From a plasmid, in the sequence record NZ_CP011600.1: a DNA stretch of 64,000 nucleotides; one strand, given 5' to 3'. Shown here piece by piece: positions 33,719 to 62,242 of the stretch. The notes beneath the pieces are model-generated. The model worked only from the letters and a program-made list of their open reading frames with translations, searched no databases and was not told the DNA's origin. Every line of letters begins with the position of its first letter. Position 1 is the stretch's first letter. A program made the translations under genes and the position numbers.

Positions 33719-33899
33719 CGAATACTCCGGCATGACCCGGCCCGGTGATATTCTCTTAATACTTTTCACCGTATCCGTAAAAAAAAGAATGTTTTACCGG
33801 ATACCTTTCTGCCCCTGCTTACCGTGCTGATTACAGCTGCTGTACAGGGGCAGCCATGAGCAGGTACTGTTAACATTGGGGTCCGCTTGGAAAACGGAA

Positions 33900-35226
33900 T
33901 CTATGGTCACTCCCGTTTTTGCAACACCGATTTTGACGACAAGTTGGCTTGCTTGAATCTATCCGGCGTCTGAATGGGATTTTATTCCCGCGCCTCGATG
34001 AGTTCCGCGCCTGATGAACCTCCAGAAAATATACGGCTTCAATGAGCCTTTCCGTTTTACAGGTTCCTCAACAGGCCGGTGGGCCGTTAGTATCATCAAT
34101 ATCAGTATTCGCAAAACCAGATGAATGATTGTTTAAACTGGTGTATTTCTGCCTTTATGCTTCGTAAGTTTGCTGTCGCGCCGTCAGTGCCCAGGCTATT
34201 CTGGCCAGCTTGTTTGCCAGAGCACAGGTGACGACAAAGTTGCTTTTCCGACACAACAACTCCCTGACCCAGTCGGCCAACTTGCCAGACTGGTGTTCCA
34301 GTTTTTGTATGAATACCCTGGCACACTGAACCAACAAAGTTCGGATCTTTTTGTTGCCCCGCTTGCTAATCCCTAACAATGTCGTCCGACCTCCCGTGCT
34401 GTACTGTCGGGGTACCAGCCCTGTTGCCGCCGCAAAGTCACGGCTGCTGGCGTACTGCTTCCCGTCGCCAATCTCAGTTGAAATAGTACTGGCAGTCAGC
34501 GTTCCAACGCAGGGAATACTCAGCAAGCGCTGTCCAACCTCATCTTCGTCCAACTTTCGTTTCAACTGAGATTCCAGATCTTTAATCTGCTCAACAAGAT
34601 AGTGATAATGCTGTTGTAATTTCAGCAGTAACTGGCTGAGATAAAGAGGCAAACTACTGTCCTCAAGAAGGGTACTCAGTCGACTAATAACGGCAGCACC
34701 TCGCGGAACGCTGATACCAAATTCCAGCAGAAAAGCATGCATCTGATTAGTTGTTTTCACCTTATCCTGAACCAGGGATTCACGGACACGATGCAGAGCT
34801 CGCATTGCCTGCTGAGATTCGGTTCTGGGCTGCACGAAACGCATAGATGGACGTGATGCTGCTTCACAGATAGCTTCAGCATCAACGAAGTCATTTTTGT
34901 TGCTTTTAACGAATGGGCGGACAAATTGCGGTGATATCAGCTTTGGAAAATGCCCTAACTCTGCCAGCTTGCGTGCCATAAAGTGAGAACCGCCACAGGC
35001 TTCCATCGCGATGGTTGTTGCCGGGCATGTCGCCAGAAATTCGATTAGCTTTGGTCGGGTGAATTTTTTACGGTAAACGGCCTTCCCACGATGATCCTGA
35101 CAATGAATATGGAAAGAGTTCTTACCCAGATCGATACCAATAAGCGCAATGTTTTCCATGATGGTTCTCCGAATGAAAGCCTGTCCTCAGCATAGTACTG
35201 GGAAGGAGGGAGTGACCATCTCATTA
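33900..35226 (-). mobile_element. IS1111-group IS (IS5075/IS4321-like, 1327 bp), copy 1, inserted in a divergent Tn21-family-like 38-bp IR
   Basis: Flanked by the IR halves GGGGTCCGCTTGGAAAACGGAA (33878-33899) and AATATCCTACGTTAAG (35227-35242). Same IS sequence as the other three copies. Confidence 0.85.
34155..35159 (-). CDS. IS110-family (IS1111 subgroup) transposase
   Basis: 334-aa ORF identical to those in copies 2-4 (MENIALIGIDLGKNSFHIHCQD...), with DEDD N-terminal and C-terminal IS110 domains. Confidence 0.9.
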   Translation of the reverse strand: MENIALIGIDLGKNSFHIHCQDHRGKAVYRKKFTRPKLIEFLATCPATTIAMEACGGSHFMARKLAELGHFPKLISPQFVRPFVKSNKNDFVDAEAICEAASRPSMRFVQPRTESQQAMRALHRVRESLVQDKVKTTNQMHAFLLEFGISVPRGAAVISRLSTLLEDSSLPLYLSQLLLKLQQHYHYLVEQIKDLESQLKRKLDEDEVGQRLLSIPCVGTLTASTISTEIGDGKQYASSRDFAAATGLVPRQYSTGGRTTLLGISKRGNKKIRTLLVQCARVFIQKLEHQSGKLADWVRELLCRKSNFVVTCALANKLARIAWALTARQQTYEA

Positions 35227-35333
35227 AATATCCTACGTTAAGCCTGTTTCTTTAGCTGGCATTACAAAAAGCGAGCGTCTGCATGGTATAGACAGACACC
35301 CGAATACGATAAAAATGAGACGAAAAAAACAGG

Positions 35334-35759
35334 TTACTTAACCCGCTTCCCCGTTTCGTCAATGACCTTTTCGCCGTCCTCTTTGGTAAACGCTCCTTTC
35401 TGACCTTCAGGTAGAATATCCAGCACTATTTCTGAAGGGCGGCAAAGACGAGTGCCAAGCGGCGTAACGACTACCGGCCGATTAATCAGGATCGGATGTT
35501 GAAGCATAAAATCAATCAACTGCTCATCACTGAATTTCTCTTCATCAAGGCCCAGGCGTTCATAAGGCTCAACATTCTTACGCAGTAATGCACGCACCGT
35601 AATTCCCATATCTGAAATAAGTTTAATCAGCTCATCACGTGTCGGTGGCGTATCGAGGTAATAAATTATCGTCGGTTCGTTGCCGCTGTTACGTATCATC
35701 TCCAGCGTGTTGCGTGAAGTGCCGCAGGCAGGGTTGTGATAGATGGTAATGTTGCTCAT
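35334..35759 (-). CDS. arsC: Arsenate reductase ArsC (glutaredoxin-coupled)
   Basis: 141 aa (MSNITIYHNPACGTSRNTL). Confidence 0.9.
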   Translation of the reverse strand: MSNITIYHNPACGTSRNTLEMIRNSGNEPTIIYYLDTPPTRDELIKLISDMGITVRALLRKNVEPYERLGLDEEKFSDEQLIDFMLQHPILINRPVVVTPLGTRLCRPSEIVLDILPEGQKGAFTKEDGEKVIDETGKRVK

Positions 35760-35771
35760 ATCTGTATCTCA

Positions 35772-37061
35772 TTACAAAGTGATGGAGAGCCGCAACGCCA
35801 GCGCGGCCAGAGTGACAAACAGCACGGGCAGAGTCATGATAATGCCGGTGCGGAAGTAATAACCCCAGGTAATCGTTATATTTTTCCGGGCAAGAACATG
35901 CAGCCAAAGCAGGGTTGCCAGACTGCCAATCGGGGTGATTTTCGGGCCTAAATCGCAGCCAATCACGTTGGCATAAATCATTGCCTCTTTGACGACGCCA
36001 GTCGCCGTACTCCCGTCAATCGACAGCGCGCCAATCAGCACCGTCGGCATATTATTCATTACCGACGACAGGAACGCGGTCAGGAAGCCGGTGCCGAACG
36101 TTGCTGCCCATAACCCCTTTTCTGCCAGCAGGTTCAGTACACCAGACAGATACTCCGTGAGCCCGGCATTGCGCAGGCCATAGACCACCAGGTACATGCC
36201 CAGCGAAAAAATCACGATCTGCCATGGCGCACTGCGCAGGACTTTCCCTGTGTTGATGCCATGACCTCTTTTCGCCACGATAAACAGTACTGCTGCGCCA
36301 GCAGCTGCTATCGCGCTGACAGGGATCCCCAGCGGCTCCAGAACGAAGAAACCGACAAGCAGCAATAACAGGACAATCCAGCCCGCCCTGAACGTTGCCG
36401 CATCCTTTATCACACTGGCAGGCGTCTTCAGCAGCGAAACGTCATACGTTGCCGGAATATCCCTGCGGAAGAAGAGATGCAGCATGATCAGCGTGGCCGC
36501 AATCGCTGCCGCATCCACGGGGATCATAACGGAGGCGTACTGCGTAAAGCCCAGATCGAAGAAGTCCGCCGAGACGATATTCACCAGGTTAGAAACAATG
36601 AGTGGCAGGCTGGCCGTATCTGCAATAAATCCTGCAGCCATGACAAAGGCCAGTGTCGTGCCCTGGCTGAACCCCAGTGCGAGCAGCATCGCAATCACAA
36701 TCGGCGTCAGGATCAGCGCGGCGCCATCATTGGCGAACAAAGCAGCAACAGCGGCACCGAGCAAGACTATCCAGGTGAACAGCAGGCGGCCACGTCCGTT
36801 ACCCCAGCGGGAGACGTGCAGTGCGGCCCATTCAAAGAAGCCGGACTCATCGAGCAGCAGGCTGATGATGATGACCGCAATAAATGCCGCTGTCGCGTTC
36901 CAGACGATATTCCAGACAACGGGAATATCAGCGATATGAATGACACCGGTTCCCAGCGCCAGCACAGCCCCGATACTCGCGCTCCAGCCAATACTCAGGC
37001 CTCTGGGTTGCCAGATCACCAGTACCAGCGTCAGTAAAAATATACTCCCTGCCAAAAGCAT
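35772..37061 (-). CDS. arsB: Arsenite efflux pump ArsB
   Basis: About 429 aa from [19 protein letters not shown]. The ORF-track 5' extension overlapping arsR was discarded. Confidence 0.9.
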
Positions 37062-37105
37062 CTCAGACCCCATCATATATGATTTTGTAAATATGTTTTC
37101 CTGCC

Positions 37106-37426
37106 TCAGCAGGAGGTGCAGGCTGATTTGTCCAGCCATCCACGTACATCCTCGCGCAGACACTGCCAGGTCGTCGTGATTGTCTCTGCTGCCCACGCCG
37201 GAATATGGGGTGACAGACGATAGTGGATCCATTTGCCTTCCCGACGGTCAAGAACCAGATCAGCCTCGCGAAGGATAGCCATATGTCGCGAAATTTTGGG
37301 CTGCGATTCGGAGGTGGCAACGCAGATATCGCAGACGCACAATTCTCCGGACTCCCGGAGAAGCATGACGATGGCTAGCCGTGTTTCATCCGACAGGATT
37401 TTGAAAAGCTGAACAGGTTGTAGCAT
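37106..37426 (-). CDS. arsR: ArsR/SmtB-family repressor ArsR
   Basis: 106 aa with the ELCVCDL metal-binding motif inside a helix-turn-helix. Confidence 0.9.
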
Positions 37427-37511
37427 TTTTCACTCCGTTCCCTTTAGAATACACATATGTTAGATCATATGTATTAACTTTAAAATCACCTGTTCTCTCC
37501 GGAGGAGAAAA

Positions 37512-38210
37512 ATGGAACAATTTCCAGCCCTGAATACTGACTGTTTTGATCAACATATTGCCGAACGTCTGCACCTGCAGGAGCCCCCACGGATTCTGAT
37601 CCTGTATGGCTCAGTAAGGGAGCGCTCCTACAGTCGCTTTGCCGCGGAGGAAGCAGGTCGCCTGCTGACGGCGATGGGCGCGGAGGTGAAATTCTTTAAC
37701 CCCTCCGGTTTACCCCTGCCGGATGATGCCCCGGATACGCACCCTAAAGTCTCCGAGCTACGCGGGCTGGTCAGATGGTGTGACGGGATGGTGTGGAGCT
37801 CGCCGGAACGGCACGGGGCTATGAGCGCGGTGATGAAGGCGCAGATCGACTGGATACCGTTGAGTGAAGGCGCGGTTCGTCCTTCGCAGGGCAAGACACT
37901 TGCAGTGATGCAGGTTTGCGGCGGTTCGCAGTCCTTCAATGCCGTGAACCAGATGCGCATTCTGGGCCGCTGGATGCGGATGTTCACAATTCCCAACCAG
38001 TCCTCGGTGGCGAAAGCCTGGCAGGAATTTGATGAGAACGGAAGGATGAAGCCGTCCTCATGGTACGACCGTATCGTAGATGTCGCAGAGGAGTTGTTTA
38101 AAATTACGTTGCTGCTCAGGGGACAAACCAGCTACCTTGCAGATCGCTACAGCGAACGAAAAGAGAGTCATCAGGAACTTTCGTACCGCGTCAATCAGGA
38201 AAAAATATAA
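37512..38210 (+). CDS. arsH: NADPH-dependent FMN reductase ArsH
   Basis: 232 aa, divergent from arsRBC. Flavodoxin-like fold signature. Confidence 0.9.
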
Positions 38211-38349
38211 CGCCTTCTGATCGTATAAATACACACCATGAGCGTTTTCACAAAGTCTCCTTCTGCCAGGCAGCGGATAATCTTACATGTGTCTGTCGTT
38301 TTCAGAAGACGGCAGACCGGACTAAAAGGGGTCGCCTCAGAAAACGGAA

Positions 38350-39676
38350 TCTATGGTCACTCCCGTTTTTGCAACACCGATTTTGACGACAAGTTGGCTT
38401 GCTTGAATCTATCCGGCGTCTGAATGGGATTTTATTCCCGCGCCTCGATGAGTTCCGCGCCTGATGAACCTCCAGAAAATATACGGCTTCAATGAGCCTT
38501 TCCGTTTTACAGGTTCCTCAACAGGCCGGTGGGCCGTTAGTATCATCAATATCAGTATTCGCAAAACCAGATGAATGATTGTTTAAACTGGTGTATTTCT
38601 GCCTTTATGCTTCGTAAGTTTGCTGTCGCGCCGTCAGTGCCCAGGCTATTCTGGCCAGCTTGTTTGCCAGAGCACAGGTGACGACAAAGTTGCTTTTCCG
38701 ACACAACAACTCCCTGACCCAGTCGGCCAACTTGCCAGACTGGTGTTCCAGTTTTTGTATGAATACCCTGGCACACTGAACCAACAAAGTTCGGATCTTT
38801 TTGTTGCCCCGCTTGCTAATCCCTAACAATGTCGTCCGACCTCCCGTGCTGTACTGTCGGGGTACCAGCCCTGTTGCCGCCGCAAAGTCACGGCTGCTGG
38901 CGTACTGCTTCCCGTCGCCAATCTCAGTTGAAATAGTACTGGCAGTCAGCGTTCCAACGCAGGGAATACTCAGCAAGCGCTGTCCAACCTCATCTTCGTC
39001 CAACTTTCGTTTCAACTGAGATTCCAGATCTTTAATCTGCTCAACAAGATAGTGATAATGCTGTTGTAATTTCAGCAGTAACTGGCTGAGATAAAGAGGC
39101 AAACTACTGTCCTCAAGAAGGGTACTCAGTCGACTAATAACGGCAGCACCTCGCGGAACGCTGATACCAAATTCCAGCAGAAAAGCATGCATCTGATTAG
39201 TTGTTTTCACCTTATCCTGAACCAGGGATTCACGGACACGATGCAGAGCTCGCATTGCCTGCTGAGATTCGGTTCTGGGCTGCACGAAACGCATAGATGG
39301 ACGTGATGCTGCTTCACAGATAGCTTCAGCATCAACGAAGTCATTTTTGTTGCTTTTAACGAATGGGCGGACAAATTGCGGTGATATCAGCTTTGGAAAA
39401 TGCCCTAACTCTGCCAGCTTGCGTGCCATAAAGTGAGAACCGCCACAGGCTTCCATCGCGATGGTTGTTGCCGGGCATGTCGCCAGAAATTCGATTAGCT
39501 TTGGTCGGGTGAATTTTTTACGGTAAACGGCCTTCCCACGATGATCCTGACAATGAATATGGAAAGAGTTCTTACCCAGATCGATACCAATAAGCGCAAT
39601 GTTTTCCATGATGGTTCTCCGAATGAAAGCCTGTCCTCAGCATAGTACTGGGAAGGAGGGAGTGACCATCTCATTA
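38350..39676 (-). mobile_element. IS5075/IS4321-like IS, copy 2, inside the outer IR of the pbr transposon
   Basis: IR halves GGGGTCGCCTCAGAAAACGGAA (38328-38349) and AATAAAGCACGCTAAG (39677-39692). Exactly 1327 bp. Confidence 0.9.
38605..39609 (-). CDS. IS110-family transposase (copy 2)
   Basis: Identical 334-aa ORF. Confidence 0.9.
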   Translation of the reverse strand: MENIALIGIDLGKNSFHIHCQDHRGKAVYRKKFTRPKLIEFLATCPATTIAMEACGGSHFMARKLAELGHFPKLISPQFVRPFVKSNKNDFVDAEAICEAASRPSMRFVQPRTESQQAMRALHRVRESLVQDKVKTTNQMHAFLLEFGISVPRGAAVISRLSTLLEDSSLPLYLSQLLLKLQQHYHYLVEQIKDLESQLKRKLDEDEVGQRLLSIPCVGTLTASTISTEIGDGKQYASSRDFAAATGLVPRQYSTGGRTTLLGISKRGNKKIRTLLVQCARVFIQKLEHQSGKLADWVRELLCRKSNFVVTCALANKLARIAWALTARQQTYEA

Positions 39677-39699
39677 AATAAAGCACGCTAAGCCCTTAC

Positions 39700-40140
39700 T
39701 TACCCAGATGTTTGACTGTTCGTGGCACTTTCACCATGGCAATTGCAATTGCCCAACCCTTGCAAAATGCCGCACGCCTCTACAGATCGAGAGCCAGAAC
39801 ACTTCTCGCGCAAATCAACCAAGTGCCGTTTTAACTGCAACAGCGCGGACACACGCATTTCCACCTGTTGAATATGGGCCTCCAGCAGCGTGATGACCTC
39901 CCCACAGTCCTGCATCGGGTTGTCTCGCAGACCCAGCAATGCGCGAATCTCGCTCAACGTCATGTCGAGCGAACGGCAATGACGGATGAATTGCAAGCGC
40001 TCAATGTGCGCCTCACCGTACAACCGAAAGTTGCCACCGCTTCGCGCTGGCTTTGGCAGTAGCCCTTCCTTCTCGTAGTAGCGGATGGTCACGACCTCGC
40101 ACCCAGAGCGCTTGGCGAGGTCGCCAATTCTGATTTCCAT
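39700..40140 (-). CDS. pbrR: MerR-family Pb(II)/Cd(II)-responsive regulator PbrR/CadR-like
   Basis: 146 aa with a MerR helix-turn-helix and a C-terminal Cys cluster (CGILQGLGNCNCH). Transcribed toward the IR. Confidence 0.85.
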   Translation of the reverse strand: MEIRIGDLAKRSGCEVVTIRYYEKEGLLPKPARSGGNFRLYGEAHIERLQFIRHCRSLDMTLSEIRALLGLRDNPMQDCGEVITLLEAHIQQVEMRVSALLQLKRHLVDLREKCSGSRSVEACGILQGLGNCNCHGESATNSQTSG

Positions 40141-40161
40141 GCATCAATCTCCAATTATCAC

Positions 40162-40192
40162 TTGACTCTATAGTGACTATAGAGATTTTAAT
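40162..40192. promoter_or_regulatory. MerR-type promoter/operator: TTGACT, then the dyad CTCTATAGTGACTATAGAG, then a -10 element with long spacer
   Basis: Perfect 8-bp inverted repeat between the -35 and -10 elements in the pbrR/pbrA divergent region. Confidence 0.65.
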
Positions 40193-40225
40193 GGAGGCTG
40201 AATAGAAGATTTTCAGGAGTTACTC

Positions 40226-42631
40226 ATGAGCGAATGCGCTTCAAAGGGGTGTGGCTGCACGACTGAGCCGATCATCCAACCCACGGCACCGGCCCCGCTG
40301 GCAACCGGATCGGCTCAAGCGGTGTACCGCATCGAGAACATGGATTGCCCGACCGAAGAGGCGCTGATCCGAAGCAAACTGGCCGGTCTGGCGGGGGTGG
40401 CGGGTCTTGAATTCAACCTGATGCAACGTACCTTGGCCGTGCGACACGAATTGCCTTCGTTGTCTCCCGTCGAGCAGGCGCTGAAGGCCATCGGCATGCA
40501 AGCTGTGCGCATGGATCAGGCGTCGGCCGAGCAGACGACCAAGCTGTCCATTGCCAAGATGGATTGCCCGACCGAAGAGACGTTGATCCGCAACAAGCTC
40601 GGCACCGTGGCCGGTGTTGCTGATCTCGATTTCAACCTGATGCAGCGCACGCTGTCGGTACGCCATGCGAACCAGGTTCTGCCAGACGTGCTCGTGGCAC
40701 TGCAAGCGCTTGGATTCGAGGCGCAGGTCGTGGACACGGCAGAGGTCGCATCTCCATCCGCCGCCCCTGTGACCACGCCGACCAACTGGTGGCCGCTGGG
40801 CATCTCCTTGGTCACTGCATCGGCGGCCGAGGCGGTCTACTGGCTCCACAACGGCAATCACTGGTCGGTTGTCGTTCTGGCGCTTGTCGCGGTCTTCACG
40901 GGTGGCCTCTCCACCTACAAGAAGGGGTGGATCGCGCTCAAGAACCGTAATCTCAACATGAACGCCCTCATGTCGATTGCGGTCACGGGTGCCATGTTGA
41001 TCGGCCACTGGCCCGAAGCGGCAATGGTGATGGTACTGTTCGCGCTGGCCGAGGTAATCGAAGCCAAATCGCTGGATCGCGCTCGTAACGCTATCCGTGG
41101 CCTGCTCGACCTGACCCCGGAACAGGCCACGGTACAGCAGGCTGACGGCACATGGCGCGAGGTGGGCGCCAAGCAAATCACCATCGGCGCCCGCGTCCGG
41201 GTCAAACCAGGTGAGCGCATCGCCCTTGATGGTGAGGTGCTGGAAGGCCGCTCTGCCGTCAACCAAGCCCCGATCACGGGTGAAAGCCTCCCGGTCGAAA
41301 AATCCCCCGGTGATTCGGTGTTCGCTGGCACGATCAACGAATCCGGCTCGTTCGAGTACCGCGTCACCGCCTTGGCCAACAACTCCACTTTGGCCCGGAT
41401 CATTCACGCGGTAGAGGCTGCGCAAGGTAGTCGTGCGCCGACTCAGCGTTTTGTCGATCAGTTCGCCCGCTGGTACACCCCCGTTGTATTCGGCGTTGCC
41501 ATCGCCGTCGCGTTGTTGCCGCCGCTGTTCATGGGTGCGGCATGGCTCGACTGGATCTACCGTGCATTGGTTCTGCTGGTGGTCGCCTGCCCGTGCGCAC
41601 TGGTGATCTCTACACCGGTCAGCATCGTCAGCGGCCTGGCCGCCGCCGCCCGCCACGGCATTCTCATCAAAGGTGGCGTCTATCTGGAAGAAGGCCGCAA
41701 GCTGCGCTGGCTGGCTCTGGACAAGACCGGCACGATCACGCACGGCAAGCCCGCACAGACCGACTTTGTCACATGGGGCAATGCACTCGCCTCGGACAGC
41801 CGCAGCATCGCTGCCAGTCTGGCGGCCCGCTCGGACCATCCTGTATCCAAGGCGGTGGCACAGGCCGCGCAGACGGACGGGGTTGCCTTGCTCGACGTGG
41901 CCGAATTCAACGCGCTGCCCGGTCGGGGTGTGCAAGGCCAAATCAACGGTGCGACCTACCATCTGGGCAACCACCGGATGCTCGAAGAGCTGGGGCAGTG
42001 CACACCAGAGCTGGAGCAGCGCATCGCTGCGCTGGAAACCGCTGGCAAGACCGTCGTGATGCTGGTGGGCGCAAAAGGGGTACATGGCTTATTCGCCGTT
42101 GCGGACACCATCAAGGACAGCAGCAAGAGAGCCATCGCCGAGCTGCATGCTCTGGGCATCAACACCGTGATGTTGACCGGCGATAACCCCCACACGGCAC
42201 AGGCCATCGCCGCACAAGCCGGCATTGACCGCGCGCAAGGCAACCAACTGCCCGACGACAAACTGCGCGAAGTGGAGCAATTGTCCAGAAACGGCAAGGT
42301 TGGCATGGTCGGTGATGGCATCAACGACGCACCGGCCTTGGCGCGTGCGGACATTGGCTTTGCAATGGGAGCGGCGGGCACAGATACCGCTATTGAAACC
42401 GCCGACGTGGCCCTGATGGACGATGACCTGCGCAAGATTCCGACCTTCGTGCGCCTGTCGCGTGCGACAGCACAGGTGCTGATGCAAAACATTGTGCTGG
42501 CCCTTGGCATCAAGGCGGTATTTTTGGTGCTCACCTTCACGGGTCACGCGACCATGTGGATGGCTGTGTTCGCCGATATGGGTGCCAGCTTGCTTGTTGT
42601 CGGCAACGGCTTGAGGTTGTTGCGCCGATGA
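40226..42631 (+). CDS. pbrA: Pb/Cd/Zn-translocating P1B-type ATPase PbrA (ZntA/CadA-like)
   Basis: 801 aa with two N-terminal HMA domains (MDCPTEE x2), a CPC motif, DKTGT and GDGINDAP. Confidence 0.9.
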   Translation: MSECASKGCGCTTEPIIQPTAPAPLATGSAQAVYRIENMDCPTEEALIRSKLAGLAGVAGLEFNLMQRTLAVRHELPSLSPVEQALKAIGMQAVRMDQASAEQTTKLSIAKMDCPTEETLIRNKLGTVAGVADLDFNLMQRTLSVRHANQVLPDVLVALQALGFEAQVVDTAEVASPSAAPVTTPTNWWPLGISLVTASAAEAVYWLHNGNHWSVVVLALVAVFTGGLSTYKKGWIALKNRNLNMNALMSIAVTGAMLIGHWPEAAMVMVLFALAEVIEAKSLDRARNAIRGLLDLTPEQATVQQADGTWREVGAKQITIGARVRVKPGERIALDGEVLEGRSAVNQAPITGESLPVEKSPGDSVFAGTINESGSFEYRVTALANNSTLARIIHAVEAAQGSRAPTQRFVDQFARWYTPVVFGVAIAVALLPPLFMGAAWLDWIYRALVLLVVACPCALVISTPVSIVSGLAAAARHGILIKGGVYLEEGRKLRWLALDKTGTITHGKPAQTDFVTWGNALASDSRSIAASLAARSDHPVSKAVAQAAQTDGVALLDVAEFNALPGRGVQGQINGATYHLGNHRMLEELGQCTPELEQRIAALETAGKTVVMLVGAKGVHGLFAVADTIKDSSKRAIAELHALGINTVMLTGDNPHTAQAIAAQAGIDRAQGNQLPDDKLREVEQLSRNGKVGMVGDGINDAPALARADIGFAMGAAGTDTAIETADVALMDDDLRKIPTFVRLSRATAQVLMQNIVLALGIKAVFLVLTFTGHATMWMAVFADMGASLLVVGNGLRLLRR

Positions 42632-43704: not shown

Positions 43705-43833
43705 GCTATACCCTAACCTGATGTCAGATGTTGAGCACAAACAACGTCAGAGTAGGGTATTAATTTATATTTATTGACACATTCAGCCAAGGGTAATAGA
43801 TTTCATCCTGACATTTTTACCTTTGGAGGCATC
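43705..43833. promoter_or_regulatory. Probable res (resolution) site upstream of tnpR
   Basis: AT-rich intergenic stretch containing TGTCAGATGTTGAGCACA... between the cargo and the resolvase, as expected in Tn21-family transposons. Confidence 0.4.
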
Positions 43834-44391: not shown

Positions 44392-44394
44392 CCA

Positions 44395-44412
44395 TGCCAC
44401 GCCGCTCAATCC
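44395..44412 (+). pseudogene. tnpA: tnpA 5' stub (MPRRSI...) truncated by IS26
   Basis: ATGCCACGCCGCTCAATCC is a Tn21-type TnpA start. The IS26 IR begins at 44413. Confidence 0.6.
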
Positions 44413-45977: not shown

Positions 45978-46374
45978 GGTAATGACTCTAACTTACTGAT
46001 AGTGTTTTATGTTCAGATAATGCCCGATGACTTTGTCATGCAGCTCCACCGATTTTGAGAACGACAGTGACTTCCTGCCCAGCCTTGCCAGATGCTGCCT
46101 CAGATTCAGGTTATGCCGCTCAATGCGCTGCGTATATCGCTTGCTGATAACGTGCAGTTCTCCCTTCAGGCGTGATTCATAAAGCGGCCAGCCATCCGTC
46201 ATCCATACCACGACCTCAAAGGCCGACAGCAGGCCCAGAAGACGCTCCAGCGTGGCCAACGTGCGTTCCACGCCTTCAGTAGCTGAGCAGGAGGGACAAC
46301 TGATGGAGATGGAAGCCACGGGAGCACCTCAAAAACACCATCGTACACTAAATCAGTAAGTTGGCACCATTACC
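45978..46374 (-). mobile_element. Internally deleted IS1 (397 bp) retaining both ends
   Basis: Starts GGTAATGACTC and ends ...CATTACC. The internal deletion fuses InsA codon ~17 to the C-terminal half of InsB. Confidence 0.85.
45993..46319 (-). pseudogene. insA'-'insB fusion remnant
   Basis: 108-aa ORF: [17 protein letters not shown] + InsB C-terminus. Confidence 0.8.
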
Positions 46375-51362: not shown

Positions 51363-51363
51363 T

Positions 51364-53077: not shown

Positions 53078-53115
53078 GGGGTCTGACGCTCAGTGAAACG
53101 AAAACTCACGTTAAG
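53078..53115 (+). repeat. Solo Tn3/Tn2-type 38-bp terminal inverted repeat
   Basis: GGGGTCTGACGCTCAGTGAAACGAAAACTCACGTTAAG (one mismatch to the Tn3 IR). No partner IR in the window. Confidence 0.7.
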
Positions 53116-53698: not shown

Positions 53699-53849
53699 GG
53701 TAATGACTCCAACTTACTGATAGTGTTTTATGTTCAGATAATGCCCGATGACTTTGTCATGCAGCTCCACCGATTTTGAGAACGACAGTGACTTCCTGCC
53801 CAGCCTTGCCAGATGCTGCCTCAGATTCAGGTTATGCCGCTCAATGCGC
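53699..53849 (-). mobile_element. 151-bp IS1 end fragment directly abutting a complete IS1
   Basis: GGTAATGACTCCAACTTACTG...CTCAATGCGC, then GGTAATGACTCC starts again at 53850. Confidence 0.8.
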
Positions 53850-53864
53850 GGTAATGACTCCAAC

Positions 53865-54368
53865 TTACTGATAGTGTTTTATGTTCAGATAATGCCCGAT
53901 GACTTTGTCATGCAGCTCCACCGATTTTGAGAACGACAGTGACTTCCTGCCCAGCCTTGCCAGATGCTGCCTCAGATTCAGGTTATGCCGCTCAATGCGC
54001 TGCGTATATCGCTTGCTGATAACGTGCAGTTCTCCCTTCAGGCGTGATTCATAAAGCGGCCAGCCATCCGTCATCCATACCACGACCTCAAAGGCCGACA
54101 GCAGGCCCAGAAGACGCTCCAGCGTGGCCAACGTGCGTTCACCGAATACGTGCGCCACAACCGTCCTCCGTATCCTGTCATACGCGTAAAACAACCAGCG
54201 CTGGCGTGATTTAGCGCCGACGTAACCCCACTGTTCGTCCATTTCCGCGCAAATAATGACGTCACTGCCCGGTTGTATGCGTGAGTTTACCGACTGCGGC
54301 CTGAGTTTTTTAAGTGTCGTAAAATCGTGTTGAGGCCAACGCCCATAATGCGTGCACTGGCGCGACAT
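53865..54368 (-). CDS. insB: IS1 InsB (made as an InsAB' fusion by frameshift)
   Basis: 167-aa ORF in the -1 frame overlapping insA. Confidence 0.9.
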
Positions 54369-54562
54369 CCGACGCCATTCATGGCCATATCAATAATTTT
54401 CTGGTGTGTACCGGGCTGAGAGGCGGTGTAAGTGAACTGTAGCTGCCATGTTTTACGGCAGTGAGAGCAGAGATAGCGCTGATGTCCGGCAGTACTTTTA
54501 CCGTTACGCACCACGCCTTCAGTAGCTGAGCAGGAGGGACAACTGATGGAGATGGAAGCCAC
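54287..54562 (-). CDS. insA: IS1 InsA
   Basis: 91 aa, [40 protein letters not shown]... Confidence 0.95.
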
Positions 54563-54617
54563 GGGAGCACCTCAAAAACACCATCGTACACTAAATCAGT
54601 AAGTTGGCACCATTACC

Positions 54618-56320: not shown

Positions 56321-57647
56321 TCTATGGTCACTCCCGTTTTTGCAACACCGATTTTGACGACAAGTTGGCTTGCTTGAATCTATCCGGCGTCTGAATGGGA
56401 TTTTATTCCCGCGCCTCGATGAGTTCCGCGCCTGATGAACCTCCAGAAAATATACGGCTTCAATGAGCCTTTCCGTTTTACAGGTTCCTCAACAGGCCGG
56501 TGGGCCGTTAGTATCATCAATATCAGTATTCGCAAAACCAGATGAATGATTGTTTAAACTGGTGTATTTCTGCCTTTATGCTTCGTAAGTTTGCTGTCGC
56601 GCCGTCAGTGCCCAGGCTATTCTGGCCAGCTTGTTTGCCAGAGCACAGGTGACGACAAAGTTGCTTTTCCGACACAACAACTCCCTGACCCAGTCGGCCA
56701 ACTTGCCAGACTGGTGTTCCAGTTTTTGTATGAATACCCTGGCACACTGAACCAACAAAGTTCGGATCTTTTTGTTGCCCCGCTTGCTAATCCCTAACAA
56801 TGTCGTCCGACCTCCCGTGCTGTACTGTCGGGGTACCAGCCCTGTTGCCGCCGCAAAGTCACGGCTGCTGGCGTACTGCTTCCCGTCGCCAATCTCAGTT
56901 GAAATAGTACTGGCAGTCAGCGTTCCAACGCAGGGAATACTCAGCAAGCGCTGTCCAACCTCATCTTCGTCCAACTTTCGTTTCAACTGAGATTCCAGAT
57001 CTTTAATCTGCTCAACAAGATAGTGATAATGCTGTTGTAATTTCAGCAGTAACTGGCTGAGATAAAGAGGCAAACTACTGTCCTCAAGAAGGGTACTCAG
57101 TCGACTAATAACGGCAGCACCTCGCGGAACGCTGATACCAAATTCCAGCAGAAAAGCATGCATCTGATTAGTTGTTTTCACCTTATCCTGAACCAGGGAT
57201 TCACGGACACGATGCAGAGCTCGCATTGCCTGCTGAGATTCGGTTCTGGGCTGCACGAAACGCATAGATGGACGTGATGCTGCTTCACAGATAGCTTCAG
57301 CATCAACGAAGTCATTTTTGTTGCTTTTAACGAATGGGCGGACAAATTGCGGTGATATCAGCTTTGGAAAATGCCCTAACTCTGCCAGCTTGCGTGCCAT
57401 AAAGTGAGAACCGCCACAGGCTTCCATCGCGATGGTTGTTGCCGGGCATGTCGCCAGAAATTCGATTAGCTTTGGTCGGGTGAATTTTTTACGGTAAACG
57501 GCCTTCCCACGATGATCCTGACAATGAATATGGAAAGAGTTCTTACCCAGATCGATACCAATAAGCGCAATGTTTTCCATGATGGTTCTCCGAATGAAAG
57601 CCTGTCCTCAGCATAGTACTGGGAAGGAGGGAGTGACCATCTCATTA
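56321..57647 (-). mobile_element. IS5075/IS4321-like IS, copy 3, inside a Tn21-type IR
   Basis: IR halves GGGGTCGTCTCAGAAAACGGAA (56299-56320) and AATAAAGCACGCTAAG (57648-57663). 1327 bp. Confidence 0.9.
56576..57580 (-). CDS. IS110-family transposase (copy 3)
   Basis: Identical 334-aa ORF. Confidence 0.9.
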   Translation of the reverse strand: MENIALIGIDLGKNSFHIHCQDHRGKAVYRKKFTRPKLIEFLATCPATTIAMEACGGSHFMARKLAELGHFPKLISPQFVRPFVKSNKNDFVDAEAICEAASRPSMRFVQPRTESQQAMRALHRVRESLVQDKVKTTNQMHAFLLEFGISVPRGAAVISRLSTLLEDSSLPLYLSQLLLKLQQHYHYLVEQIKDLESQLKRKLDEDEVGQRLLSIPCVGTLTASTISTEIGDGKQYASSRDFAAATGLVPRQYSTGGRTTLLGISKRGNKKIRTLLVQCARVFIQKLEHQSGKLADWVRELLCRKSNFVVTCALANKLARIAWALTARQQTYEA

Positions 57648-57658: not shown

Positions 57659-58216
57659 CTAAGCGTGCGTGGAGGCTGGCACCCAGCGGTACAGCGTCGG
57701 AATGGACACGCCGAGGTTCTTGGCCACGTCCTTGGGCGGCACCCCGCTGGCCAGCAGCTTCTTGGCCGACTCGATCTTGCTGTCGGTCATCTTCGGCTTG
57801 CGGCCGCCTTTGCGGCCGAGCTGCTTGGCGACTTCCAGCCCGGCGCGGGTGCGCTCGACGGTCAGCTCGCGCTCCATTTCGGCAAGGCTCGCCATGACGT
57901 GGAAGAAGAACCGCCCGGATGGTGTGCCGGTGTCGATGGAGTCGGTGAGGCTCCTGAACTGGACACCGTGCTTGTGCAGATCGCCGACCAGATCGACCAG
58001 TTGCTTGACCGACCGGCCCAGCCGGTCGAGCTTCCAGACGACCAAAGTATCGCCTTCGCGCAGCATTTCGAGCGTCTTGGCCAAGCCAGGCCGGTCTGCC
58101 CGCGTGCCACTCACCTTGTCCTCGAAGACCTTTTTACATCCGGCCTTGCTCAAGGCTTCGCGTTGCAGCTCCAGGTTCTGATCCTGCGTCGAGACGCGCG
58201 CATAGCCAATCAACAT
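57659..58216 (-). CDS. tnpR: Serine resolvase (Tn3-family / TniR-like)
   Basis: 185 aa (MLIGYARVSTQDQNLELQ...). Its stop lies 4 bp from the IR, and no tnpA is present. Confidence 0.85.
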   Translation of the reverse strand: MLIGYARVSTQDQNLELQREALSKAGCKKVFEDKVSGTRADRPGLAKTLEMLREGDTLVVWKLDRLGRSVKQLVDLVGDLHKHGVQFRSLTDSIDTGTPSGRFFFHVMASLAEMERELTVERTRAGLEVAKQLGRKGGRKPKMTDSKIESAKKLLASGVPPKDVAKNLGVSIPTLYRWVPASTHA

Positions 58217-58581
58217 GGCTTGTCTCGCGCCCGGTCGATGCGTTCCTGCATCGCCTGCATCACTTCTTCGTGGGTGTACGATCTGGCGTTGGCGTCGGTG
58301 GCTTGCCGCAGGGCTTCCTCAACCTCGCGCGTCATCCGCTCGTAATCCTCCGGCCACAGCGCTTGCTCCATGCGCAGCGACGCCTGACCCAGCAGGTGCA
58401 GCAGGCTGAACAGCCGCATGTCGTTGGTGGCGACGATGCGCTCCCGAATCTGCTCCTGAATAGCTTCGCTAGCCCGATGCGCTTGTGGTGTGGCAGTCCC
58501 CTCGTAGTCAGCGGGGAATTCCGCTTCCTCGGCAATCCTTGCCCAGGCGCTGGCCAGCGCCTCGATGGTTGACGTGCTCAT
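58210..58581 (-). CDS. Hypothetical ~124-aa protein (start MSTSTIEALASAW)
   Basis: Translationally coupled (ATGA) to the upstream membrane-protein gene. The longer ORF-track version is a 5' extension. Confidence 0.4.
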   Translation of the reverse strand: MSTSTIEALASAWARIAEEAEFPADYEGTATPQAHRASEAIQEQIRERIVATNDMRLFSLLHLLGQASLRMEQALWPEDYERMTREVEEALRQATDANARSYTHEEVMQAMQERIDRARDKPC

Positions 58582-59090
58582 TTCCGCCGCTCCTGTGCTC
58601 TTTGGCGAATCAACCGGCCAAGGGGCCTCGACGCGAAAACCAGCAGCATCACGCCTATCGGATACCAGGTCGAGAAGACCACCAAGGCATCGAAGGCTGG
58701 CCGTCCGGTGTTGGTAGGCAGTACGGCGGTCACAGCCATCAACCCGCCGACCGTCCAGATGATGCGCCACACGTAGGGCATCACGCGGGGCACGTAGCCG
58801 TCATCGAAAGCGGTCTGGTAGTAGCGGCGCAGGCCGCGCTCGGCAAGCGCCTGGCGCTGCCGCTCCGACAGCGCATCCGTCCGGCCATACCAGCGCCGGA
58901 ATGGTGGACAGCGCAGCAGCAAAGGGGTGAAGAGGATCATCACCGCCACGATCGCGACACCCCACGCCATGACGGCGCCGGCATCGGGCCGCTTGGCGTT
59001 CTCGATCACGGGCGCGAAGACGCCCGGAGCACCGATCATCCAGAACAGCGCAATGTGCTGATGGAAGGAGAGCTTCATTTGCTCATCCAC
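58578..59090 (-). CDS. Hypothetical inner-membrane protein (~170 aa, four predicted transmembrane segments)
   Basis: Hydrophobic segments. In an operon with the neighbouring ORFs. Confidence 0.4.
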   Translation of the reverse strand: MDEQMKLSFHQHIALFWMIGAPGVFAPVIENAKRPDAGAVMAWGVAIVAVMILFTPLLLRCPPFRRWYGRTDALSERQRQALAERGLRRYYQTAFDDGYVPRVMPYVWRIIWTVGGLMAVTAVLPTNTGRPAFDALVVFSTWYPIGVMLLVFASRPLGRLIRQRAQERRK

Positions 59091-59401
59091 TTGCGCAGCA
59101 GGCGCTTTTTCAGGGAGGCGCGTTCTTGCGGGTTGCGTCCCTTGTGATTGGCGATGCGATCCGCCGTGGCGGCCTGGCGCTTGACGGGCCAGTAGGAGCG
59201 GCCATCCTTGCCCATCGACCAGACGCTGCTGGCCTGGTTTTCCAGCAGGGGCAGATGGGCGCTCAGGGCTTCGGGCGACGCGCTGGTCAGCGCCGTGCGC
59301 TCACGGGTGCGCCAGCGCTGATGCCAGAGCTTCTTGTCCTCGCGCTCGCTGCCGCAGGTCGTGTGCCCGACGATGGGTGTTTTGCGGCGGCTGCGGCTCA
59401 T
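59075..59401 (-). CDS. Hypothetical basic 108-aa protein
   Basis: Arg/Lys-rich. It overlaps the downstream gene start by 16 bp. Confidence 0.3.
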   Translation of the reverse strand: MSRSRRKTPIVGHTTCGSEREDKKLWHQRWRTRERTALTSASPEALSAHLPLLENQASSVWSMGKDGRSYWPVKRQAATADRIANHKGRNPQERASLKKRLLRKWMSK

Positions 59402-59655
59402 AACGTAGTGGTCTCCAAGAACATTCAGGACTGATCCCAGGCGTCGATGGTCAAGACCTGATCGGCAGGACAGGCGGCTACGCGGTCGGGAACTGGATGG
59501 TGTTCAGTCTCATGCCGACCCCATTCGATTGATCGCGTCGCTTGCGGCACGCTGCGACGCAAGGAGGTTTGCGACCTGGTTTAGCAGCCGTGTCCGCTGC
59601 ATGTCTGTTACCTATCTCCCCGACCGCTCATTGGACCAACTCCAGAGATTGGGCT

Positions 59656-60051
59656 CTATCGCTCAGCCAATACGAAACCGGCATTGGCTGATGCCACAAC
59701 CGAGACTAACACAAATGGCTCGGTACCTGTATTTCGCGCCCCGTGCACTTGGCCCGGTCTTGCCACGGCTATCTCACCTTCCCTGAGGGCACGAACAATC
59801 CCATTGCCCTGAAAGTAATCAGCCATTCCCGACAAAACAGTCCACGTGTCTTGGCCGTGAGGATGAATGTGAGCCGCAATTTCCTGCCCGGGATGGACAT
59901 GCCAAACCACGATAATTGAGTCTCGGGTTTCAAGCACAACGGAACGAATAGGCTCGCCTTCGGACGGCTGAACATACTCGGCTACAGAAAATATTCTCGA
60001 TTCAACAGTCATCGGAGATCCCTCTTTCACAGTTGTCGTTACGGTCTTCAT
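59656..60051 (-). CDS. Cupin-domain protein (~131 aa)
   Basis: Cupin motifs (HVHPGQEIAAHIHPHGQD ... PGQVHGARN). The ORF-track 5' extension was discarded. Confidence 0.55.
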   Translation of the reverse strand: MKTVTTTVKEGSPMTVESRIFSVAEYVQPSEGEPIRSVVLETRDSIIVVWHVHPGQEIAAHIHPHGQDTWTVLSGMADYFQGNGIVRALREGEIAVARPGQVHGARNTGTEPFVLVSVVASANAGFVLAER

Positions 60052-60403
60052 CGTCGGCATCCTGACGCACGGCGGGCAATTGCTGGAGCAACGCCGGCAG
60101 CCATTCCTGTACCGTCTCCCACACCACATCGAGGTTGATGTCGAAATAGCCGTGAGCCATGCGATTACGCATATTGCGCATGCTGCGCCACGGCACGTCG
60201 GCATGCGCCTGGGTGAACTCGACGTAGCCATCCATCACCTTTGTGGCCGCCTCGCCGATGACGATCAGGCTCATGATGACGGCCTGCTGGGTGCGCTTGT
60301 CGGCCAAGAAGTCGTCCTTGGCCATCCCTTCCACGAAGCTGCGCGCATCGGTTGCGGCCTGCTGAATGTGGTCGAGGTAATCGGGCAGGCGGTTCTCGCT
60401 CAT
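60002..60403 (-). CDS. hepT: HepT-type HEPN toxin
   Basis: R-x4-HxY motif (RNRMAHGY). ATGA-coupled to the upstream MNT gene. Confidence 0.7.
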   Translation of the reverse strand: MSENRLPDYLDHIQQAATDARSFVEGMAKDDFLADKRTQQAVIMSLIVIGEAATKVMDGYVEFTQAHADVPWRSMRNMRNRMAHGYFDINLDVVWETVQEWLPALLQQLPAVRQDADDEDRNDNCERGISDDC

Positions 60404-60696
60404 ATCGGTTGCGCCTCCGCGAGCACCTTGGCCCGGAACTTCGGCGGCAGGTCGCCGGGAGTCAGCAGATCGACGTCAACGCCGAGCAGCGATTTCAGTT
60501 CTTCTTCCAAATCGCCCAAGTCCAACAACGTGGCACCGGGCAGCGCATCGACCAACAGGTCGAGGTCGCTGCCATCCCGGTCGGTGCCATGCAGCACCGA
60601 GCCGAAGACGCGCGGGTTCGCGGCGCGAAAGCGGCCTACCGCTTCACGCACTGCGCTTCGCTTCATGTCAAGCACAACAGACGGTCGCATGCGCAT
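60400..60696 (-). CDS. mntA: MntA-type minimal nucleotidyltransferase antitoxin
   Basis: 98 aa with a GS...DxD nucleotidyltransferase motif (GSVLHGTDRDGSDLDLLVD). Confidence 0.75.
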   Translation of the reverse strand: MRMRPSVVLDMKRSAVREAVGRFRAANPRVFGSVLHGTDRDGSDLDLLVDALPGATLLDLGDLEEELKSLLGVDVDLLTPGDLPPKFRAKVLAEAQPI

Positions 60697-60883
60697 CCTT
60701 TCTTATCGAAACTCGTTGAGATGATATGCAATCAAGAATAGAATTTCAAGAACTATTTTCGAGAATCGCAATGCCTTGATTCCCGTGCCGCGCCGGTTGT
60801 CACTTTCAGAAGGCGACAGCACGAAATATCAAAAGTCGACCGCACGGTCTTTTCTGACGTTGGAGTCGCCTCAGAAAACGGAA

Positions 60884-62210
60884 TCTATGGTCACTCCCGT
60901 TTTTGCAACACCGATTTTGACGACAAGTTGGCTTGCTTGAATCTATCCGGCGTCTGAATGGGATTTTATTCCCGCGCCTCGATGAGTTCCGCGCCTGATG
61001 AACCTCCAGAAAATATACGGCTTCAATGAGCCTTTCCGTTTTACAGGTTCCTCAACAGGCCGGTGGGCCGTTAGTATCATCAATATCAGTATTCGCAAAA
61101 CCAGATGAATGATTGTTTAAACTGGTGTATTTCTGCCTTTATGCTTCGTAAGTTTGCTGTCGCGCCGTCAGTGCCCAGGCTATTCTGGCCAGCTTGTTTG
61201 CCAGAGCACAGGTGACGACAAAGTTGCTTTTCCGACACAACAACTCCCTGACCCAGTCGGCCAACTTGCCAGACTGGTGTTCCAGTTTTTGTATGAATAC
61301 CCTGGCACACTGAACCAACAAAGTTCGGATCTTTTTGTTGCCCCGCTTGCTAATCCCTAACAATGTCGTCCGACCTCCCGTGCTGTACTGTCGGGGTACC
61401 AGCCCTGTTGCCGCCGCAAAGTCACGGCTGCTGGCGTACTGCTTCCCGTCGCCAATCTCAGTTGAAATAGTACTGGCAGTCAGCGTTCCAACGCAGGGAA
61501 TACTCAGCAAGCGCTGTCCAACCTCATCTTCGTCCAACTTTCGTTTCAACTGAGATTCCAGATCTTTAATCTGCTCAACAAGATAGTGATAATGCTGTTG
61601 TAATTTCAGCAGTAACTGGCTGAGATAAAGAGGCAAACTACTGTCCTCAAGAAGGGTACTCAGTCGACTAATAACGGCAGCACCTCGCGGAACGCTGATA
61701 CCAAATTCCAGCAGAAAAGCATGCATCTGATTAGTTGTTTTCACCTTATCCTGAACCAGGGATTCACGGACACGATGCAGAGCTCGCATTGCCTGCTGAG
61801 ATTCGGTTCTGGGCTGCACGAAACGCATAGATGGACGTGATGCTGCTTCACAGATAGCTTCAGCATCAACGAAGTCATTTTTGTTGCTTTTAACGAATGG
61901 GCGGACAAATTGCGGTGATATCAGCTTTGGAAAATGCCCTAACTCTGCCAGCTTGCGTGCCATAAAGTGAGAACCGCCACAGGCTTCCATCGCGATGGTT
62001 GTTGCCGGGCATGTCGCCAGAAATTCGATTAGCTTTGGTCGGGTGAATTTTTTACGGTAAACGGCCTTCCCACGATGATCCTGACAATGAATATGGAAAG
62101 AGTTCTTACCCAGATCGATACCAATAAGCGCAATGTTTTCCATGATGGTTCTCCGAATGAAAGCCTGTCCTCAGCATAGTACTGGGAAGGAGGGAGTGAC
62201 CATCTCATTA
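60884..62210 (-). mobile_element. IS5075/IS4321-like IS, copy 4, inside the IR next to merR
   Basis: IR halves GGAGTCGCCTCAGAAAACGGAA (60862-60883; GGAG rather than GGGG) and AATAAAGCACGCTAAG (62211-62226). Confidence 0.9.
61139..62143 (-). CDS. IS110-family transposase (copy 4)
   Basis: Identical 334-aa ORF. Confidence 0.9.
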   Translation of the reverse strand: MENIALIGIDLGKNSFHIHCQDHRGKAVYRKKFTRPKLIEFLATCPATTIAMEACGGSHFMARKLAELGHFPKLISPQFVRPFVKSNKNDFVDAEAICEAASRPSMRFVQPRTESQQAMRALHRVRESLVQDKVKTTNQMHAFLLEFGISVPRGAAVISRLSTLLEDSSLPLYLSQLLLKLQQHYHYLVEQIKDLESQLKRKLDEDEVGQRLLSIPCVGTLTASTISTEIGDGKQYASSRDFAAATGLVPRQYSTGGRTTLLGISKRGNKKIRTLLVQCARVFIQKLEHQSGKLADWVRELLCRKSNFVVTCALANKLARIAWALTARQQTYEA

Positions 62211-62242
62211 AATAAAGCACGCTAAGGCGTAGTTCCCTCGGG

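Follow-up and report, generated by a model that had tools for sequence, protein, structure and literature searches.

The reference for IS5075 and IS4321 is Partridge & Hall (2003, J Bacteriol 185:6371), as cited in PMC11187229, PMC5725488 and PMC8269217. Passages of PMC5725488, PMC8269217 and PMC5001619 that cite this work give both elements a length of 1327 bp and one insertion position in the inverted repeats (IRs) of Tn21-family transposons, which are split into 22 + 16 bp. Some K. pneumoniae lineages carry about five copies on average (PMC8269217). Circles of IS4321 and IS5075 form at high rates, with circle junctions detected without deletion junctions, and no further transposition was seen, which was explained by target sites being already filled (PMC5001619). 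In islands derived from Tn1696 (ARI-A of IncC plasmids, Tn6404), both outer IRs contain IS4321/IS5075, which “locks” the island, and its further evolution takes place in situ (PMC7652850, PMC5725488). Members of the Tn5053 family hunt for res sites and are nested in carriers of the Tn21/Tn501 family (PMC7765201).

The window analyzed here, a 64-kb stretch of plasmid NZ_CP011600.1, has in common with the Tn1696-derived islands the presence of an IS in the IRs of metal/drug-resistance transposons. However, in those islands a single transposon provides both occupied IRs as its inverted ends, whereas in the window the IRs of four elements (IR1 to IR4) face one direction. The reading that we favor, with a probability of about 0.85, sees the region as nested and truncated metal-resistance transposons that form a mosaic; their co-facing IRs existed beforehand, and all targets were then filled by IS5075.

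IS5075 copies and their targets

The four IS copies lie on the minus strand at positions 33900-35226 (copy 1, left IR half from 33878 and right half to 35242), 38350-39676 (copy 2, 38328 and 39692), 56321-57647 (copy 3, 56299 and 57663) and 60884-62210 (copy 4, 60862 and 62226). Comparison confirmed what the earlier note had noticed: the 1327-bp copies are byte-identical over their full length, co-oriented, and each splits a 38-bp Tn21-type IR after base 22. The zero differences suggest a recent burst of IS5075. The transposase (334 aa; 34155-35159, minus strand, in copy 1) has a DEDD (RuvC-like) IS110-type domain and a Transposase_20 domain (PF01548, E = 1.2e-20 and PF02371, E = 4.4e-20 in a profile search), with 330-350 aa being the size expected in the IS1111 group. 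The ends of the element read TAATGAG-ATGGTCACTCCC... and TCT-ATGGTCACTCCC..., which form a 12-bp subterminal inverted repeat; a 12-bp IRR is mentioned in PMC5725488.

Identity was judged against annotated public copies of IS5075 and IS4321. The window element matches both copies of NZ_CP028954.1 (annotated as IS5075 family, WP_000427614.1) at 1327 of 1327 positions, and a copy annotated as IS4321 at 1239 of 1327 (~93%). On this sequence comparison the element, previously called IS5075/IS4321-like, is IS5075, a member of the IS1111 group of the IS110 family. It is no different from the described elements, sharing with them the length, the DEDD transposase, the subterminal 12-bp ATGGTCACTCCC, insertion after base 22 in one orientation and the absence of duplication; what is particular here is the presence of four copies in four co-oriented IRs within 28 kb. 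Every other full-length copy with flanks that was compared in related plasmids showed the same 22/16 split and orientation. No bases were gained or lost between occupied and empty sites, so IS5075 generates no target duplication. In the closest backbone relatives, the IR1 site is occupied by a variant that differs from that of the window at five positions, which indicates that the insertion history is not one simple lineage.

On the plus strand, each of the IRs reads GGGG...TAAG, in agreement with the four direct IRs claimed earlier, and the transposon interior therefore lies to the right of each. IR1 is composed of the 22-bp half GGGGTCCGCTTGGAAAACGGAA and the 16-bp half AATATCCTACGTTAAG, while IR2, IR3 and IR4 join GGGGTCGCCTCAGAAAACGGAA, GGGGTCGTCTCAGAAAACGGAA and GGAGTCGCCTCAGAAAACGGAA, respectively, to AATAAAGCACGCTAAG. 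The right half quoted in the earlier note is thus correct for copies 2-4 but not for copy 1. The outer halves on the 22-bp side are not uniform (GGGGTCCGCTTGG, GGGGTCGCCTCAG, GGGGTCGTCTCAG, GGAGTCGCCTCAG). Chance is ruled out for the IR matches, since the 16-mer right half is expected only 0.06 times. Every copy of the core target GAAAACGGAAAATA in the window is occupied by IS5075. A solitary Tn3-type 38-bp IR (53078-53115, plus strand, one mismatch to the Tn3 IR), oriented like IR1-IR4, lacks this core and is empty, providing an internal negative control, in line with the target specificity proposed for the IS. Insertion of IS5075 would have deprived the IRs of their function. As the target fixes the orientation of IS5075 and the IRs are co-oriented, the IS copies are co-oriented too; they reflect how the IRs are arranged and not how the array was constructed.

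Transposons to which the four IRs belong

The cargo had been listed as ars, pbr-res-tnpR, tnpR with HEPN/MNT, and mer modules, and annotation of identical DNA agrees. Within the window, none of the four IRs delimits a full Tn3-family unit with an inverted 38-bp IR pair, tnpA, tnpR and res, and a search of these 64 kb allowing up to 13 mismatches found no inverted partner for any module, again as noticed before. Partner IRs are known in relatives for the elements of IR1 (NZ_CP051549.1, segment L006, 10131), IR2 (pKP1650-1) and IR3 (pOSUMEAT1, segment L008, 12970). Nothing unusual is needed to explain the missing partners: one element is split by nesting and another truncated by IS26, IR4 is a relic within a Tn5053-family element, and the partner of IR3 would lie past the window edge.

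IR1 is followed by the left arm of an ars-chr Tn21-family transposon (35243-38327), assigned from its gene content and its relative in NZ_CP051549.1. The arm carries arsC (35334-35759), arsB (35772-37061) and arsR (37106-37426) on the minus strand and arsH (37512-38210) on the plus strand, and terminates in a Tn402-like 25-bp IR relic (38294-38318). In P. diazotrophicus NZ_CP051549.1 (segment L006), it runs on to padR-chrA-tnpR and the inverted IR. The same segment contains the empty IR1 site (3344-3381), with both flanks identical to the window, and shows no target duplication of the ars-chr element. Judged from these sequences, IR1 bounds an ars-chr transposon that was invaded just past arsH by the cadR/pbr transposon of IR2, and this nesting accounts for the missing partner.

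The cadR/pbr transposon (39693-44412) is truncated and lacks tnpA and the distal IR. It encodes cadR/pbrR (39700-40140, minus strand) and, on the plus strand, a P-type ATPase (40226-42631), a PAP2-signal peptidase II fusion (42628-43704) and tnpR (about 43834-44391). IS26 (44413-45232, 820 bp, terminal repeats GGCACTGTTGCAAA) directly follows tnpR, at the point where tnpA starts in the complete relative, and this cut accounts for the missing distal partner of IR2. In pAF18_1 (segment L002, 23102-23139), IR2 is intact and its flanks agree with the window on either side; the IR1-ars-IR2-cad tandem occurs there without any IS. The cadR/pbr Tn3-family transposon of pLVPK-like K. pneumoniae plasmids has in common with the window the cadR-ATPase-PAP2/LspA-tnpR genes and IS5075 in the IR. 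Its representative in pKP1650-1 (segment L007) is complete: tnpA and an inverted IR are present, IS5075 occupies both IRs, and the flanks, read by eye, show no target duplication. In contrast, IS26 truncates the window version after tnpR, and the outer IR half there is GGGGTCGCCTCAG instead of GGGGTCCGCTTGG.

Downstream of IR3 lies the tnpR arm of an ISPa38-like Tn21-subgroup transposon (57664-60797, minus strand), recognized by its domain content and a complete relative. Its first gene is tnpR (57659-58216), followed by three orfs, a cupin gene, HEPN/DUF86 (60002-60403) and MNT (about 60400-60690). The complete IS-free element of pOSUMEAT1 (segment L008, 6748-12970; 6223 bp) has tnpA, both IRs and a 5-bp target duplication, TAAAA. 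An intact IR3 with the same interior is found at position 6748 of this segment and in pUO1 (segment L003, 11979). These matches place IR3 at the tnpR end of such a transposon, with its partner predicted beyond the window edge. The carrier shares the order tnpR ... HEPN-MNT, then tnpA, with TnSod9 (PMC7157771). The IS-free relatives match the window on the inner side of IR3 only. No IS-free record combining the left flank of the window, an intact IR3 and tnpR was found in the public-record search, the best matches to the left flank covering part of it at another insertion site. This left (GFA-side) flank is shared with pMRY16-398_1, where the opposite (tnpA) end of the transposon adjoins it. 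Given this arrangement in the closest relative, the IR3 junction probably results from an IS-IS inversion in one lineage and not from simple insertion.

The Tn5053-family mer transposon (60798-64000, plus strand) is cut off by the window edge. At its mer end is a 25-bp terminal IR (60798-60822) that we read as IRo. IR4 starts 64 bp inside the element and adjoins merR (62243-62677, minus strand), beyond which merT (62749-63099), merP (63115-63390), merF (63393-63635) and merA (from 63635 to the window edge) lie on the plus strand. The possibility that IR4 is a normal Tn21/Tn501-type mer transposon end was rejected because of the 25-bp IR 64 bp upstream and of tniRQBA downstream in relatives. 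In pAF18_1, pUO1 and pALIDE02, the mer element is 8.45 kb long, includes tniRQBA and the other terminal IR (IRt), and contains an intact IR4 with the same flanks (segment L002, 35583, minus strand; segment L003, 15444; segment L011, 15396, minus strand); none of these three relatives has an inverted 38-bp partner for IR4. The mer modules of pUO1, pQKH54 (Tn6607) and pALIDE02 are 100% identical to the window over the 1.8 kb visible. On this evidence IR4 is a relic 38-bp IR that needs no partner, and the tni genes and IRt are predicted beyond the window edge. The mer transposon lies between MNT and tnpA of the ISPa38-like element, in the intergenic stretch expected to hold the res site of that element. 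The nested elements of pUO1, pQKH54 and pALIDE02 likewise comprise a mer-tni element with 25-bp IRs, intergenic and beside the tnpA of the carrier, whereas the window differs by the internal relic IR hit by IS5075 and by its ISPa38-like carrier. The IR3-module 3-IR4-mer tandem is IS-free in pUO1 and, as judged by hit coordinates, in pUM505; in pALIDE02 the nested form retains the ISPa38-like tnpA and distal IR. K. pneumoniae plasmids already hold co-oriented IR3::IS5075 and IR4::IS5075.

Origin of the array and rearrangements in relatives

Uninterrupted versions of all four IRs are thus present in other plasmids, with the same sequence on both sides for IR1, IR2 and IR4. No PLSDB record covers 80% or more of positions 33000-57999, and the junction of IS copy 1, IR1 and ars had 0 hits in an exact scan of GTDB species genomes. 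In the favored reading, the host would be a Phytobacter-type IncF plasmid in which four Tn21-type 38-bp IRs happened to face one way, after insertion of the cadR/pbr transposon into the ars-chr transposon and of the mer transposon, with its fossil IR4, into the ISPa38-like transposon. IS5075 would have arrived after this layout was established and copied itself into all available targets, saturating every reachable Tn21-type IR, including the fossil one.

The earlier note had suggested that homologous recombination between IS5075 copies, or repeated IR capture, built or reshuffled the direct array and gave an IS-bracketed modular platform, which we consider unlikely. Relatives do contain IS-joined hybrids: IR1-left is joined to IR2-right in pMRY16-398_1, from which the 4450-bp ars segment is absent, and in pKP1650-1 with another flank, and IR1-left is joined to IR3-right in pTMTA97341. 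Beyond IR4, pKPC-c606 has another interior, and pMRY16-398_1, which shares the GFA-side flank with the window, carries the ISPa38-like interior next to it in the opposite orientation. The role of the IS copies as portable homology in this plasmid family is thereby supported in part, and the recombination component of the proposal would stand for these hybrids and probably for the IR3 junction. However, the events seen in relatives are deletion, inversion or exchange of modules, not assembly of an array, and both tandem pairs occur with identical junctions and no IS (pAF18_1, pUO1 and, by hit coordinates, pUM505). In addition, each of the eight IR halves corresponds to the natural IR of the interior beside it, so that no recombination breakpoint is visible in the window. 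For IR1, IR2 and IR4, the empty sites contradict assembly by recombination, which is largely refuted there, and construction of the array by IS5075 is not supported. The modules are not seen to move or assemble as IS-defined units either, since the same boundaries occur IS-free.

Two further explanations are barely credible. The recombinase could use the outer ends of two direct copies, excise an IS-module-IS circle and deliver it to another IR, the modules thereby acting as translocatable units, which the direct orientation of the window copies allows and which would fit with the high rates of circle formation (PMC5001619) and the ability of IS1111-family systems to move cargo between IS ends (PMC11187229). 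Yet no relative carries a module between two IS copies at a new IR, and the module edges are ordinary transposon ends that exist IS-free. Collapse, duplication or polishing of repeats during assembly could also produce four identical copies of a 1.3-kb sequence, but the eight junctions are all distinct and each is matched, occupied or empty, in independent public records, and related plasmids also hold several identical copies each. A related idea, which we rate as very unlikely, is that direct IS5075 copies in transposon IRs do more than provide passive homology, their own seekRNA-guided recombinase pairing the ends of different copies and excising or exchanging whole IR-to-IR modules. If true, it would constitute an IS26-like translocatable-unit system for metal-resistance modules aimed at Tn21-family IRs, with the IS-joined hybrid IRs of related plasmids as its footprints.

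Once present, the identical 1.3-kb copies offer homology through which metal-resistance modules were deleted, inverted or swapped in related plasmids of Phytobacter, Klebsiella and other Enterobacteriaceae; this makes hybrid IR halves useful markers of such rearrangements. The practical value lies in annotation and in the reconstruction of plasmid evolution; the behavior of the element is ordinary, its biology is already known, and the current understanding of IS5075 is unchanged.

A candidate seekRNA in the 3' non-coding region

According to the seekRNA model (PMC11187229), target choice by IS5075 would most likely be mediated by a candidate seekRNA (33975-34085, minus strand, in copy 1; identical in all copies) in its 255-nt 3' non-coding region. 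No bridge RNA or seekRNA family of Rfam matched the IS, and the predicted fold is no more stable than that of shuffled sequence (z = -0.81). Within this region, AAAACGGAAA (34049-34058) and TATTTTC (34025-34031) flank the hairpin GGCUCAUUGAAGCC and are positioned in an internal loop of the fold. Both motifs are unchanged between IS5075 and IS4321 copies and match opposite strands of the target IR at the insertion/crossover point, a joint match that was obtained in 44 of 20,000 shuffles.

Identity and target sites of the four IS5075 copies

A repeat search of the window returned four direct repeats, with starts near 33878, 38328, 56299 and 60862. Base-by-base comparison showed that their 1,327-bp core is byte-identical in all four copies (copy 1, 33900-35226; copy 2, 38350-39676; copy 3, 56321-57647; copy 4, 60884-62210). 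The 22 bp before and the 16 bp after each core make up one 38-bp GGGG...TAAG inverted repeat (IR1 to IR4), and all four IRs share one orientation. The earlier note had thus described correctly four identical copies, each placed after base 22 of an IR facing the same direction. The right half that it quoted, AATAAAGCACGCTAAG, occurs three times in the window and holds for three copies, but copy 1 carries AATATCCTACGTTAAG instead. The outer IR halves vary between copies. No inverted partner of the 38-bp IR was found in the window with up to 13 mismatches allowed, in agreement with the reported absence of a distal IR.

Each copy contains a single ORF on the minus strand (334 aa, with an IS110-type DEDD domain and a Transposase_20 domain), and the element ends carry 12-bp subterminal repeats, ATGGTCACTCCC. 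In comparison with annotated copies, the element is identical to two IS5075-annotated copies in the K. pneumoniae plasmid NZ_CP028954.1 and about 93% identical to copies annotated IS4321. By all features tested, it belongs to IS5075. Two reports describe IS5075 and IS4321 as 1,327-bp elements with a single target position in Tn21-family IRs, which they split into 22 and 16 bp (PMC5725488, PMC8269217). Both circularise at high rates, leaving no deletion junctions, and no longer transpose when their target sites are already filled (PMC5001619). Islands that receive such insertions are described as locked in place (PMC7652850), and some K. pneumoniae lineages carry a mean of about 5 copies (PMC8269217). 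The array shows a well-documented element with known behaviour in a mosaic of known transposons. Of minor note, every target is filled, a relic IR among them, and IS-mediated rearrangement has left clear comparative footprints.

The core GAAAACGGAAAATA is common to IR1 to IR4, and all its occurrences in the window hold IS5075. A solitary Tn3-type 38-bp IR at 53078-53115 lacks this core and contains no IS. It has one mismatch to the Tn3 IR, is oriented as IR1 to IR4, precedes a minus-strand GNAT gene and has no partner in the window. A near-target in the sil/pco part, GAAAACCGAAAATG (11347-11360), differs from the IS5075 core by two mismatches and is unoccupied.

In the IS1111 family, a seekRNA derives from the non-coding region 3' of tnp, and two of its short segments correspond to the two strands of the target (PMC11187229). 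Within the 255-nt 3' region of the window element lie AAAACGGAAA and, 17 nt further on, TATTTTC, which match opposite IR strands and overlap at the insertion point. In the predicted fold (candidate region 33975-34085, minus strand), both segments flank a small hairpin within a longer stem, and both are unchanged between IS5075 and IS4321 copies. Shuffling gave the 10-mer match in 206 of 20,000 trials and both matches jointly in 44 of 20,000. The candidate fold had no unusual stability, and no Rfam model matched it. Target choice probably proceeds through this putative seekRNA, encoded in the 3' non-coding region of the IS.

All four window copies carry the same five differences from every copy in the plasmids closest in backbone, at IS coordinates 41, 143, 144, 190 and 1123 (for example, window 33940, 34042-34043, 34089 and 35022), and within each plasmid the copies are identical among themselves. 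Of these positions, four fall within the 3' non-coding region, including two in the hairpin loop between the putative guide segments. The window variant and that of these relatives occupy the same IR1 site; independent site-specific insertions or gene conversion could explain the five differences.

Transposons to which the inverted repeats belong

IR1 is the left terminus of an ars-chr transposon of the Tn21 family. Phytobacter diazotrophicus NZ_CP051549.1 has the same backbone flank, an intact IR1, arsC-arsB-arsR-arsH, padR, chrA, tnpR and an inverted IR, and this locus is the exact empty site for copy 1. IR2 is the left terminus of a transposon that encodes cadR, a P-type ATPase, a PAP2-signal peptidase, tnpR and tnpA, which is complete in pKP1650-1, with IS5075 in both inverted IRs, and which IS26 cuts in the window at 44413, directly after tnpR. 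In pAF18_1, IR1-ars-IR2-cad is 100% identical and both IRs are uninterrupted, so that the tandem direct IR pair is older than the IS.

A 25-bp Tn402/Tn5053-like IR (TGTCGTTTTCAGAAGACGGCAGACC, three mismatches) lies at 38294-38318, at the arsH-distal end of ars and 9 bp before IR2. It is also found in the Phytobacter locus (L006, 6433) and in pAF18_1 (L002, 23068), and its presence in the IS-free ars-chr transposon points to an older relic inside that element. IS26 (44413-45232), a complete IS1 and IS1 fragments (45978-46379, 53849-54617) bound segments deleted or rearranged relative to pMRY16-398_1, and the EAL::IS1 region of that plasmid (L001, 3924-8000) is missing from the window.

IR3 belongs to an ISPa38-like transposon, as its tnpR end. 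Raoultella pOSUMEAT1 carries a complete IS-free copy of 6,223 bp, flanked by a 5-bp duplication (TAAAA), in the order IR, tnpR, three orfs, cupin, HEPN, MNT, tnpA, IR. The HEPN/MNT toxin-antitoxin pair adjoins the tnpA-proximal intergenic region in both the window (60002-60690) and pOSUMEAT1. TnSod9 (PMC7157771) has the same HEPN/MNT layout, but the ISPa38-like element has a cupin gene and three extra orfs between this pair and tnpR.

IR4 was ruled out as a transposon end, since it sits inside a Tn5053-family mer transposon. A 25-bp Tn402/Tn5053-type IR (60798-60822) bounds this transposon, and IR4 begins 64 bp inside it. Plasmids pUO1, pAF18_1 and pALIDE02 carry the identical mer element at 8.45 kb, comprising merRTPFADE, tniRQBA and another 25-bp IR. 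IR4 is thus a fossil 38-bp IR. Within the ISPa38-like element, the mer transposon occupies the MNT-tnpA intergenic region, which is expected to hold the carrier's res site; res-site hunters of the Tn5053 type target such regions (PMC7765201). IR4 is uninterrupted, with identical flanks, in the same three plasmids, and pUO1 carries IR3, module 3 (tnpR to MNT), IR4 and mer in one contiguous IS-free stretch. In K. pneumoniae plasmids, co-oriented IS5075 copies are already present in IR3 and IR4. Four bases, CGGT, just outside the Tn5053-family terminal IR are absent from pAF18_1 (L002, about 35648) and present at window 60794-60797 and in the uninterrupted pOSUMEAT1 target.

Origin of the array and rearrangement in relatives

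The IS-free tandem IR pairs of pAF18_1 and pUO1 speak against the proposal that the array was built by recombination between IS copies or by IR-targeted capture. Alignment of copies and flanks, suggested as a way to locate breakpoints, gave none to find, because each of the eight IR halves in the window fits the IR that naturally goes with the interior next to it. The IRs are direct because different transposons are nested or lie side by side, not because of the IS. The missing partners have ordinary explanations: downstream of the cad insertion and of the IS26/IS1 events, that of IR1 was lost, that of IR2 was removed by IS26, and for IR4 none is present or expected. The IR3 partner is expected about 13 kb to the right of IR4, beyond the window. 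There we predict merA-D-E, tniRQBA and IRt (GTGCAGTCGTCTTCTGAAAATGACA), then CCGGT and TGCCTTGGCGGG, followed by the ISPa38-like tnpA and an inverted IR, possibly with a fifth, inverted IS5075.

IS copies did not build the window array, but the note's recombination model is right in part: in the closest backbone relatives, IS copies join unrelated IR halves. Plasmid pMRY16-398_1 reads backbone flank, IR1-left, IS, IR2-right and cad, without exactly the 4,450 bp between copies 1 and 2; pTMTA97341 joins IR1-left to IR3-right across an IS, and pKPC-c606 has IR4 with an IS4321, then an unrelated interior. The left flank of IR3 in the window adjoins, in pMRY16-398_1, the tnpA end of this ISPa38-like transposon, with the tnpR end distal, behind an inverted IS5075. 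Opposite ends at a shared flank indicate that the interior is flipped between the two plasmids, as recombination between one transposon's two inverted IS copies would produce. IS5075 copies thus act as portable homology, deleting, inverting and exchanging modules in this plasmid family. An odd nested junction was also seen in pMRY16-398_1 (L005, 11735-12988), where an IR1-type left half contains an IS4321-like copy that breaks off about 95 bp short of its end, with IR3-left and a full IS5075 immediately after it.
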